Below, one piece after another: positions 5,985-41,510 of a stretch of 64,000 nt of DNA. Numbering within the stretch: position 1 is the stretch's first letter; each line of letters begins with the position of its first letter. The stretch lies in NCBI RefSeq assembly GCF_032062105.1, contig NW_026932784.1, positions 124,001 through 188,000 on the forward strand, given 5' to 3'. A program made the position numbers and the translations under genes. The notes under the pieces were generated by a model. The model was not told the origin of the DNA and did no database searches. It saw only the letters and a list, made by a program, of their open reading frames with translations. This DNA is from Saccostrea cucullata. Taxonomy: Eukaryota.

Positions 5985-8900
5985 CTATTCACTTAACATC
6001 CCCCGAAAATGTTCATGCTCAGTAATTTCAGTCATATTTTTCGTCTTATCGAAAGGTGTTAAATTCACTGCATTGTCTTTTAGACCTCCAGATAATTCAT
6101 TTGTTTTCGTCTTTCCTTTATCTGCGGATTTATACTTTATGTTAATCGTCACTTTCATCTCCCGCACTTCGGCGTATTCACCGTTCACGGAATCTGTTTC
6201 AGATACCCAAGAAGCACACTTCTGCAAAGAGTCATTCAGACGAGTTGTAATGGATTTGCTGTCCATGCTTTCTTTACTTGAGTATCTATCCTTGTCTGAA
6301 TTTACCTCCTTATTATTAGAAATCTTTGGTAATTTTCCGAATTTAAAGACTTCTGGTTTGAAGGGTTTGTTTGTTTGTCGTAAAAAGTTGATATGTTTTT
6401 CAGCTTCCACTACTTTTTGACCTATATCCCTTGAACTTGACTGGGATTGTCCAAAAACACTGTTATCAGAAAGTTCAGAAGTCTCGGTACTTGTGAATAC
6501 TTTCTGAGTTGATGATGTTGTTATTTCACTTGGATCGTTTGATTGTTGCACGGTTGTGATTGCAAATAATTCAGAACACTCAAGTTTTTGTGGTTTTCTT
6601 GCCTCTTGTAATTGTGTGCTCATGGGTGGAAGATGATGTGTCTTTTTGAAAATCTTTTTCCCCATGAGTCCATTTGTCGAGTTAACAAACTGAAGGTGTT
6701 TGTTAAGATCAAACATTCTTCGGTACCTTTTCTTAAATTCAATTTCGTTATGTATGCTCCCAAAGACAGAGGTCTCGTCATCTGGGGCGTCTTTACTGAT
6801 GGGAAAAGATTTGGATAAAGGAGGTCGACCATTGTATGATCGTCTGCTACGAAAAGTTTCACTATCCACTGAAAAATCTGAATCTGAACCGCGCACTGTA
6901 GAACCCCCTGATGTCTTTGTGTCATCCAAATCTTTTAATTTCAACCGTTTCTTCTGTAGTTTCTTTCTTTTAACAATATTCGAATTGCTAAAACGTGGAG
7001 CTCTTTTTGTTGACAACGAACTGTAAAAACCACTTTGTGCAGGTTTGTCTTTCATCCAATGATCAACTTGTTTTGCAATGTCTTTATTCCAGTTTTCAAA
7101 TTCTTGTTGCATACGGGGAGTTTTCCGATACATTTGAGACAAACTACCGTTCCTTGGAGTCTCCAATTCATCTGAGTTGTATGAAATTTGCCTACAAGTA
7201 ATAAAAAATAGAACTGTTTTAATCAATATAATTTATCTTTGTTTCAATAAAAACTAGCATGTTGGTAACAATGGGCCACAACCCTCACCTAAGTCATTAT
7301 GATCCAACATAATGAGATTTTCCCATTTGCATTACTATGTAAACCTTTGATCACATAATTTAGCTTCCTCTTATCCCAAGGGATATAAACAGAACAAACT
7401 AGAAAAATTGAAATACATGATAAATTGTTTCACGATAATTTTGACTTGACATTGGATTTACAGTTTTTGAGAGAAAGATTTTTCTGTGTATTCATTCTGA
7501 ATTTTGATTACTCATTGTCGTCTTTCCCTTCCCCCATGGTTTTAACAAACTTAAATCTACACTACAGAGCAAATATTAATGAATCAAATTTTCTAACGAA
7601 TGCTACAATACAAATATGACAATCTGACCTTGAAGTTTTCGAGAGAGATACTGTTATAGTTTTTCCCCCCGTATTTCCTCTACTTCCTAAATAAACTTCA
7701 ATTGCTCATTGTCCTATCTAAAGGCTCATAATTATATTAAAATTGAATTTGATTTATTTATGAAACTTTCATATTAATTTCAAATTTCCTGGTCAAGTGA
7801 TCAATAAGAAGATTATTTTTCAATATATTTCTAAGTGAAACGTTAAGCGCAAATTGTTTCCAAACCTACCCCCAGGGACAAATGTTTGCTTTGAACAAAT
7901 ACACTCTACCACTATAATGTTTTCAGTAAAGTACAACATTCTAATCCAGTGGTTATTCAAAAAATTGACCTCATCGTTCTTGAAAAAGAAAATTAAAATT
8001 TTGAAAAAGTTTAGATACAAAGATGGACAGACGTACGATGGGCAGAATATAATAAGATCAGAAAATCACACTTAATTTTTCAGCTCAGGTGAGCTTAAAT
8101 GTAAAAGCGATTGCCGTGATAAAAAAAAACATAACTATGTAGCAAGAACTTGAATTTGTAACATAAGGTTTCCTTAAAATTAGATGCTACGATATCGGCT
8201 ATACCATTATATGTTTCTAGCTTTCTACAATGCCAAGTCAAATCCAGAATCCAGGATAATCAGTTTTAAAGGTAAAGGCTTATCAATCGGAAACACCCTA
8301 CAATCAAAGTGCCATGCGCCAACGATCAAAATTAACACATTTCCTTTCGTTAAGACTTGTCACAGAAAACAACTGCTTCTCAATAATGCTTTGTCACTGT
8401 GAAACTCGTTTCGCCCTTTTCCTCATTTGTTGCAGATTCCTTTTTAAGATATAGTGGTACTTGTATGAATATATTTATGTTTTTGTTATAAAATTTATTG
8501 CATTTTTAAGCTTGATAATTTTACATCTTCTTAAACCTTTTATATATTTTGCACGTATCATTCTTGAGCATTAAAAGTGTTTTCTTAAGTTCTCATGTTA
8601 TATGACCTTGATATATTATTATATCAATATTTAATAAAGCTGTTTTCATTTTTGTGCATTTCGTAGAAGTAAGTCTCAATGAAGCTTATCATTACACATT
8701 TTATTTTTGTACCCTATATCGGAAATAATAAAACTCAGTCAAATTAAAGGAGGACGAGTTTCTTCCTTATTCATATTCTTTTGCTCTCTTATCCTACTTA
8801 TCTTATTGATGATAAATAATTGTTTGTCAAAACAGACATCCACGTCCACAAATTTAAAACAGAAGTAAGCTGCACAAGCTTCTGAGTTAGTACTTTTAAG

Positions 8901-40200: not shown

Positions 40201-41510
40201 TGGCACCATGATACTAAAATACTTGATTTACATTAGAAAGCATACTTACACACTGCAACACAGACAAAGAGTGTTAATGACATTTTTATATCGCTGCTCA
40301 GACATCTCACACAGGGACACACTTAGCAGGTAATCATCATCTCCCTAAATTATTGTTCTCCAATACATAATATTCAATGTCCAGAAAAACAAACTTGATC
40401 AGTAAATCCCTTGGTGTTTTCGTTGGAGTGTTTCACACCTAATCTCATATTCTTAAACCATGTACAAATGTGGAACTATATAAGCGCCATTGTTTAAATC
40501 AAAGACTCGTTTAATAAGTCTTTACATTTCAAAGATATTAAATTTATTTGAGCTGGGCTGCCTCGATACTTGATCGATGTGTAATTTGTAACGTATTTTA
40601 TTTCTTCTGGCGTTAGAGCTTAGTTGGTCAATGATCAGAGAGGTTACAGACTTAGAATTATAAAAATCGATACATTCAAATTTATCTTTGGGGAAGCAAA
40701 TATTTAATCCATTATTCATAAAAGAAAAGTTTGTTTTATTATTTATTTCACCTTCAATTAGCTTTAATCAAGAACTAATTAATTTGTATATTATAAAGTG
40801 TTTCAAACATTTGTACTTAACGGATAGGTCGTTAAATGCATGAAGGCTTTATATGCTTGCACACAGATTGCATTAAGAAAAAAAGTCTTCATATGAAAGT
40901 GCTTTAAATTTACAATGATAGATTATGTAACTATGTTTATTAAAAATCAAGTGCTCAGTTACCCAATTTTTAAAAATTCTAGACGATAATTGATTTTTAG
41001 CTTTATGGGCTTTTATGCATTTTTTTTTCAAATAGAGCTCTTGATATTAAGTTATTGAATATCTTTGTTTAAATAGTTCAAGAAAAAAACTGACTTTATT
41101 TGATTCAAGTCAATTTAACAAATTGGGAGGATTACATGATTTAAATTTTCATCATCTTCATTGTCGCTCGGTTGATATTTTATAAAAAGGGATTTAGCTT
41201 TTAATTACATATTTGTGCAACTAAACTATCCTTCATTTATGTGCAAGTGCACAGTACTAATTTCATCCTTGATATAACAAATTTTACCTCAAACTTACCA
41301 AAAGCAGTACTTTAAACGTATAGATTTTTTTTTCTTTTTTGTAAATTCTGTTTTCCAATTATTTTAACATCTTGTAAATAAAATCCTAACTGAAATAGAT
41401 AATAAACAATAATTTAATTAAATTTTCTATGTATACCTTTCACTGTTCTCTAGTGGGCTCTTCCAAGGGCGATCTATGGATGTTGTTCTTGGTGCTTTGA
41501 TTCCCGCCAT
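31215..41510 (-). CDS. Uncharacterised, mostly disordered protein 'gene B' (~721 aa); coding exons 41437-41510, 33350-33598, 31215-33057
   Basis: 616-codon ORF trimmed at cctttcgttgcacag|G. The internal exon is bounded by ttctttactttacag|C and ATA AA|gtttgt. The first exon is gaaaATGGCG...GAA AG|gtatac. All junctions are phase 2 and in frame (2166 nt). The first exon is the least certain part. Confidence 0.78.
35059..35093 (-). ncRNA. Minimal type I hammerhead ribozyme motif in the PLE 3' repeat
   Basis: Minus strand reads AGCTT-CTGAAGA-TTTGAAAT-GAAA-GCGC-TT-AAGCT. It has the CUGANGA and GAAA cores, stem I AGCTT/AAGCT and a palindromic helix III AGCGCT. Confidence 0.7.
35240..36940 (-). CDS. 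PLE reverse transcriptase / GIY-YIG endonuclease (566-aa intact portion)
   Basis: RT motifs FYGLPKVHK, FRPIV, SFDVVNLYTNIP, GTAMG and WKRFLDD; thumb PFLDV...KSTD...HPHH; Cys/His linker CADARCGTCAH; endonuclease VIYVITC..CQEFYIGET...R..H...E. Confidence 0.95.
   Translation of the reverse strand: MSVGHLDLTAKEKDYLTNFETKESQFYGLPKVHKSLEIKNAIKAQRGEYICCLNPEDLSFRPIVGGPNCSTQRLSHLLDILLKPYCEKVPSFIRDDIDFINHLPEHIQPNTKLVSFDVVNLYTNIPVELGIKAVKYWIDRYPHLLQDRFEQEFILEGLRIILQNNTFAFGIEHFIQTKGTAMGTKVAPTYATLTLGYLEQKLHQRLVTLWGEKDAKAITSNWKRFLDDCFILWNDIIEKLSIFHQLLNDLDSSIKFTMECSDMELPFLDVLVIKEDTKLSTDIFYKSTDTHQYLHFGSCHPHHTKTAIPYNLARRLCAIVSDEITRDIRLKELKFYLLKQGYPQNLIDNGILKAKGYERSELLSTKTQENKTDIIPFVHTHNPRNHNLTSVVHQLNNVLKTDRSTQQIYRDVKFINSRRQPKNLRRILCSSHFNNSYKVTKCADARCGTCAHIMEGSTYDFKGRQFTVNANMSCATKNVIYVITCAGCQEFYIGETSNQLRARVRVHRQHINSPEYRQIPLSEHLDTCGNKQFTIFPFYKLSSESDIQRREKEKHFIHVFKPRLNN

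Follow-up and report, generated by a model that had tools for sequence, protein, structure and literature searches.

Two tandem oyster genes belong to an unnamed family of mollusc proteins with a conserved core and alternative first exons

Two neighbouring genes, A and B, lie in a 64,000-nucleotide stretch of the Saccostrea cucullata genome (RefSeq assembly GCF_032062105.1, contig NW_026932784.1, positions 124,001 to 188,000; hereafter the window, whose own numbering is used throughout). They raise the question of whether two proteins of little overall resemblance belong together and, if so, what kind of protein they are. An earlier note on this DNA had proposed that A and B are old tandem duplicates of an unrecognised family, sharing four short peptide blocks and an intron, and that they encode disordered scaffolds, possibly regulators of protein phosphatase 1 (PP1). 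Sequence comparison places both genes in an unnamed family of mollusc proteins, undescribed in the searches run. We give a probability of about 50% to the model that the products are disordered, non-enzymatic signalling adaptors, exon-switched and likely membrane-tethered, in which B likely offers a site for PP2A-B56 and the core likely folds on binding a single partner. We infer this model from the gene structures, paralogy, family range, block conservation and alternative first exons observed here.

All eight peptides of the four blocks were located on the minus strand in the order proposed, and the interval runs exactly from the ATG of gene B (41510) to the stop codon of gene A (5985). The last exons of A and B gave as top matches, at 100% identity, the S. 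cucullata proteins LOC134236144 and LOC134236159 (721 aa), respectively, with eight proteins returned for each exon when searched separately. Both are labelled uncharacterised in RefSeq, and family name, domain and function are absent from the records. The gene B model, consisting of a first coding exon (41510-41437), exon 2 (33598-33350) and a last exon (33057-31215), is identical to XP_062574321.1. Three exon models were obtained for gene A, each identical to one of the RefSeq isoforms X1, X2 and X3. X1 and X2 begin at 15365-15355 and 15541-15534, respectively, and continue with exon 2 (13675-13328) and the last exon (7191-5985), while X3 starts at an internal alternative first exon (11740-11667) and skips exon 2 and with it block 1; the same X3 N-terminus is found in O. 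edulis and C. virginica. Every intron in these models is GT-AG and in phase 2, exon 2 is symmetric (phase 2-2) in both genes, and the LPIKI-K codon at its donor (block 1) is split as AA/gt..ag/G in A and in B, as had been described. In addition, both gene B splice joints (41437/33598 and 33350/33057) were present in assembled RNA contigs of three of the four runs, the contigs being about 95% identical and thus those of a near relative. In the fourth run, which comprised deep raw poly(A) reads, gene B was barely covered. The proposed architecture therefore stands for the symmetric exon and the large last exon, but not for the single short first exon, as each gene has three candidates. For A, a fourth first exon may lie at 14227-14196 (minus strand), where the phase-2 donor is weak and the encoded N-terminus resembles that of S. 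echinata.

The range of the family was evaluated with a profile of the conserved core, a unit of about 70 residues made of block 3 and its extension in both proteins (32633-32427 in B, 6764-6531 in A). At E ≤ 0.001, a search of 1,835,955,588 protein representatives returned 30 proteins, the weakest at 38.1 bits. Organism names were attached to nine of these, all molluscan: two Saccostrea, two Pinctada, Ylistrum, Pecten, Mytilus, the freshwater mussel Potamilus and the gastropod Gigantopelta. Pfam gave no match at cut-off for 11 members, profile searches of PDB sequences with the family gave no credible match, and the ESM Atlas offered nothing usable for the core, a mussel member reaching only clusters below 0.9. 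A literature search by 12 family locus identifiers and by topic found no paper on the family; supplements, which may hold expression data under other identifiers, were outside that search. The counts below cover 33 homologues (11 A-type, 11 B-type, nine third-group and two gastropod-type proteins) that were left after removal of fragmentary and near-duplicate entries, P0004, P0006, P0008, P0009, P0015, P0016 and P0083 among them. P0109 replaces P0071 in the shuffle and block-2, B56, CxCC, block-1-motif and chance-RVxF counts. One further member, P0106, is filed under a Candidatus Thiodiazotropha metagenome-assembled genome, with an N-terminus that reads like intron read-through; the entry likely stems from host DNA that was binned with a bacterium.

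The relationship between A and B was assessed block by block, comparing pairwise scores with those of 200 shuffles of B. Only block 3 was significant on its own, its score being reached by none of the shuffles, as against 30 for block 1, 193 for block 4 and all 200 for block 2 (GSDSDF/GYDSEF). For blocks 1 and 4, conservation across the family makes up for the weak pairwise scores. An LPxxI[KR]-type motif was found by pattern at block 1 in all 15 of the 33 sequences that span exon 2, and the exon-2 region of B from GTIP..PP through a charged stretch to block 1 is conserved as far as Mytilus, Pecten, P0109 and Gigantopelta. Block 4 (31913-31878 in B, 6161-6126 in A) is a strand of strict hydrophobic alternation, and 30 of 33 homologues have it according to a pattern that was composed with the alignment in view. 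Block 2 was rejected as a common motif: besides its chance-level score, a like motif occurs in 4/11 A-type, 6/11 B-type, 0/9 third-group and 0/2 gastropod-type proteins, and it is restricted to oyster and pearl-oyster-type proteins, with none in mussel, scallop or the other groups. Profile comparison was more sensitive. HHalign matched the A and B profiles at E 7.9e-6 with 8+8 sequences and at E 4.5e-15 (probability 98.4%) with 11+11. Moreover, a hidden Markov model (HMM) of B-type proteins scored A at 42.6 bits (shuffle maximum 4.6), and the HMM of A-type proteins gave B just 8.5 bits (shuffle maximum 3.8). Together with block 3 and the shared intron position and phase, the profile match supports the proposal that A and B are old tandem paralogues, a relationship secure at the profile level.

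In a tree of 23 rows and 113 columns, the A-type, B-type and third groups each fell on one side of a branch, with support values of 83/81, 81/76 and 99/98, respectively, modest for the first two. The approximately unbiased test gave p of about 0.31 for both alternative branching orders of the three groups. Oyster, pearl oyster and scallop proteins are present in both the A-type and the B-type group; therefore, the duplication is older than the split between oysters and scallops, which on these sequences places a tandem duplication early in pteriomorph bivalves. Beyond the window, linkage was judged from locus numbers and contig sizes: three other oysters number their A and B loci consecutively, and the source contigs of A-type P0017 and B-type P0075 are each 61,369 bases. 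The third-group protein P0109 combines B-type exons 1-2 with an A-like core, suggesting that the ancestral gene resembled it. After duplication, A would have lost the charged stretch of the B-type exon 2 and gained a helix and a KLPxI motif of its own.

The family could alternatively consist of fast-evolving members of one already described in other animals and lying past the reach of the search. The core profile of one subfamily scores the other at only 10-29 bits, below the weakest library match (38.1 bits); therefore, equally distant relatives would be missed by this single-pass search. Against this stand the negative Pfam, PDB and ESM Atlas results, and we regard the possibility as rather unlikely. 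In these searches the family gained no assignment, and its named members are molluscan.

One element of the adaptor model is the set of alternative first exons. In gene B, an open phase-2 exon at 40305-40250 (minus strand) ends in LCLCCSV and is followed by the consensus donor GTAAGT. It matches annotated isoform N-termini of O. edulis (tblastn E 8e-14) and C. virginica (E 1e-11). CxCC first exons are annotated in these two species, three Mytilus species and Pecten, and one is present in P0109; CxCC occurs within the first 30 residues of 10 family proteins. Isoform-specific N-terminal palmitoylation is known for GRIP1b/ABP-L (PMC7802216). By analogy, the CxCC first exon is likely a switchable palmitoylated membrane anchor, and first-exon choice would set location, the CxCC exon giving a membrane-bound form. 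The RNA speaks against this reading, as no spliced joint of the CxCC exon was found in the four runs. The third candidate first exon of B (34262-34180, minus strand; open, phase 2, ending RSLCWLG, donor GTATGT) weakly matches the N-terminus of O. edulis isoform X3 (E 0.002) and likewise gave no joint in the four runs.

The conformation of the proteins was assessed by AlphaFold2 for A and from composition for B. The mean predicted local distance difference test score (pLDDT) of A was 43.7 with an 11-row alignment and 50.7 with 33 rows, and the models contained isolated helices at residues 145-167 and 265-283 and no sheet. The first helix (W..DI.KQVD.WM, 7115-7047) is conserved among A-type proteins, with block pLDDT up to 93, and the second lies in the core. 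The composition is polar, with 25-27% hydrophobic residues. Consistent with the scaffolds envisaged before, both products are predicted to consist mainly of disordered chain interrupted by conserved islands, a pattern that fold-on-binding segments would fit. Two points weigh against leaning heavily on these data: the alignments are shallow, so that low confidence is no proof of disorder, and the 33 sequences share ancestry, so that counts over them overstate independence. The core itself is basic and consists of an F..RY..VFD amphipathic helix, [HQ]FV.S followed by a hydrophobic pair and G, LPP, and FAI.SVQ..N.P. We propose that this whole long segment, rather than a five-letter motif, would fold on binding a single conserved partner.

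Further islands were defined by patterns written post hoc. [KR]LPx[ILM] motifs are present in 24 of 33 homologues, including all 11 A-type proteins, and a C-terminal FFxT motif in 11/11 B-type proteins (FFVT at 31247-31236 in B). F.KLP.I is found in 11/11 A-type proteins and might conceivably be a Cdc14 PxL site. Patterns for SILK, LC8, SxIP and PKA sites gave no consistent family-wide signal over the 33 homologues. A calcineurin PxIxIT-like pattern occurs in 10/11 B-type proteins versus 4.5 expected, but its positions differ and it is absent from the B of the window, so it is not claimed. In the last exon of B, at about 32850-32890 (minus strand), oyster proteins carry C-x-H-x4-C-x2-C and scallop-type B proteins a similar Cys/His cluster, possibly a small metal site.

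Another element of the adaptor model is a candidate PP2A-B56 site in B. The features preferred in B56 ligands are L at P1, I at P4 and acids at P7-9 (PMC10970375). The B segment LTDITEREESNL (31991-31956, minus strand) contains LTDITEREES from residue 464, with acidic P8/P9, which fits [LMFI]xx[ILV]xE with acids at P7-9 and lies in the region judged disordered from composition. L..I.E with a following acid was found in 9/11 B-type proteins versus 0.7 expected from shuffles. B thus likely carries a PP2A-B56 docking site, and B-type proteins would recruit PP2A-B56 through LTDITE.[DE/G]E or be its substrates. Three observations weigh against this assignment: two scallop-type proteins, P0082 and P0087, lack the best form of the site, as do the A-type proteins (0/11), a looser consensus is common by chance (10/11 B-type observed, 8.1 expected), and the flanks of LTDITERxESNL are as conserved as P1, P4 and P6, leaving room for another partner.

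The earlier idea that A and B are PP1 regulatory subunits was extended to a degenerate RVxF motif followed by a hydrophobic pair. The consensus [KR]-x(0,1)-[VIL]-x-[FW], with a PhiPhi motif 5-8 residues downstream of RVxF, is given in PMC10731240. Both RNVHF of B (32585-32571) and KHLQF of A (6701-6687) satisfy it. The F of the site is kept in 32/33 homologues, both gastropod-type proteins read KHVHF, and a hydrophobic pair follows at about +5/+6 in most homologues, near the PhiPhi spacing. However, the aligned site fits the published consensus in only 19/33 homologues, or 9/33 if the anchor must be V or I, and the 14 failures comprise anchor Pro (3), anchor Met or Phe (3), no correctly spaced K/R (7) and Tyr for Phe (1). 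The anchor column is variable (L12/V8/I7/P3/M2/F1), whereas the nominally free x column is H or Q in 33/33 and the +1 residue is V in 32/33; therefore, the pattern is the reverse of that expected for RVxF. Furthermore, no other RVxF position is common to the family, SILK occurs in 0/33, and chance alone would be expected to place an RVxF match at some position in over half of the sequences. A complex prediction of the A core (258-342) with the animal-type PP1 of locus L009 scored 0.01 and 0.00; it was run without alignments or control folds and is counted neither way. PP1 docking by A or B is weakly supported at best, and PP1 regulation appears unlikely as the role of the family. Conservation among molluscs, on which the proposal depended, thus holds for the core and for blocks 1 and 4, but not for block 2 or the RVxF anchor. 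As a separate observation, the Ylistrum A-type protein P0066 carries a canonical KRVSF at residues 89-93, just ahead of block 1, which oyster and pearl oyster A proteins lack.

Structural, filament-associated disordered proteins of ciliary, flagellar or cytoskeletal type would also account for several features; in this reading, the basic core and block 4 would bind a polymer or associate with themselves. The basic core, the post hoc [KR]LPx[ILM] and alternating-strand patterns, and the restricted expression of B suggested by its near absence from one deep poly(A) run against spliced contigs in the three other runs, are compatible with such a role, as is the family's presumed resemblance to ciliary proteins. 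The lack of a credible match in PDB-sequence profile searches argues against it, and we consider it improbable. A bolder proposal is a long shot. It sees in the core a new type of extended module for phosphatase docking and in the B-type proteins hubs for two phosphatases, peculiar to molluscs, which would engage PP1 by a degenerate RVxF-PhiPhi and PP2A-B56 by LTDITE and be switched between cytosol and membrane by the bivalve-conserved choice of first exon. Finally, an overall identity of about 16% and the individual failure of blocks 1, 2 and 4 against shuffles might encourage the notion that A and B have no common origin and that their matching short peptides are coincidental. This notion is refuted by the HHalign match and by intermediates such as P0109, with block 3 and the common intron position and phase also against it, and its probability is negligible.

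Other features were recorded in the window. Intron 1 of gene B contains a Penelope-like retroelement (35243-37217, minus strand) with reverse transcriptase and GIY-YIG parts split over two reading frames and flanked by TA runs near 35010 and at 37345-37385, as well as an approximately 50-base piece (38887-38935) of a repeat whose transcripts are very abundant; each of the four RNA runs showed high depth and loose ends over this piece. Two arrays of a similar 21-base minisatellite lie between genes B and A (17315-17676 and 24900-25400). Upstream of gene B, tandem carbohydrate sulfotransferase exons (49939-51051 and 54989-56158, minus strand; Sulfotransfer_2, E 1e-36 and 1e-38) are usable as synteny markers, and a tRNA-Glu(TTC) gene occupies 48557-48629 (plus strand).

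Both genes were already annotated; what is added is a family for which the searches run gave neither a name nor a domain model nor a paper, and whose core could seed a new Pfam family. Two handles emerge that can be tested at low cost, namely a predicted cysteine anchor that is switched by exon choice and retained among bivalves, and a strong candidate B56 site. If the adaptor model is true, farmed shellfish possess a lineage-restricted signalling adaptor. A disordered motif scaffold is a familiar kind of protein, and a specialist would probably find the result useful rather than very surprising.

Comparison with known systems places the family as follows. The nearest are LOC134236144 and LOC134236159, whose proteins and gene models are identical to A and B of the window, and their uncharacterised orthologues, but the LOC134236159 records returned lack the CxCC exon and the third first exon that the window sequence offers. 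PNUTS/spinophilin-type PP1 regulators share with A and B predicted disorder and an RVxF-like pentamer with a hydrophobic pair behind it, whereas the family has an unconserved anchor (many members have Pro, Met or Phe there or lack the basic residue), no SILK and no similarity to PDB chains. B resembles BubR1 and RacGAP1/Cyk4-type B56 ligands in its L-T-D-I-T-E, P8/P9 acids and phosphorylatable P2 (9/11 B-type proteins), but has no homology to known ligands, and its predicted site is missing from scallop-type B and from A. As in GRIP1b and ABP-L, conserved cysteines in gene B sit on an optional N-terminal exon in front of a body common to the isoforms; unlike them, the family has no PDZ or other folded domain, so the likeness is one of working principle, with lipidation here predicted.

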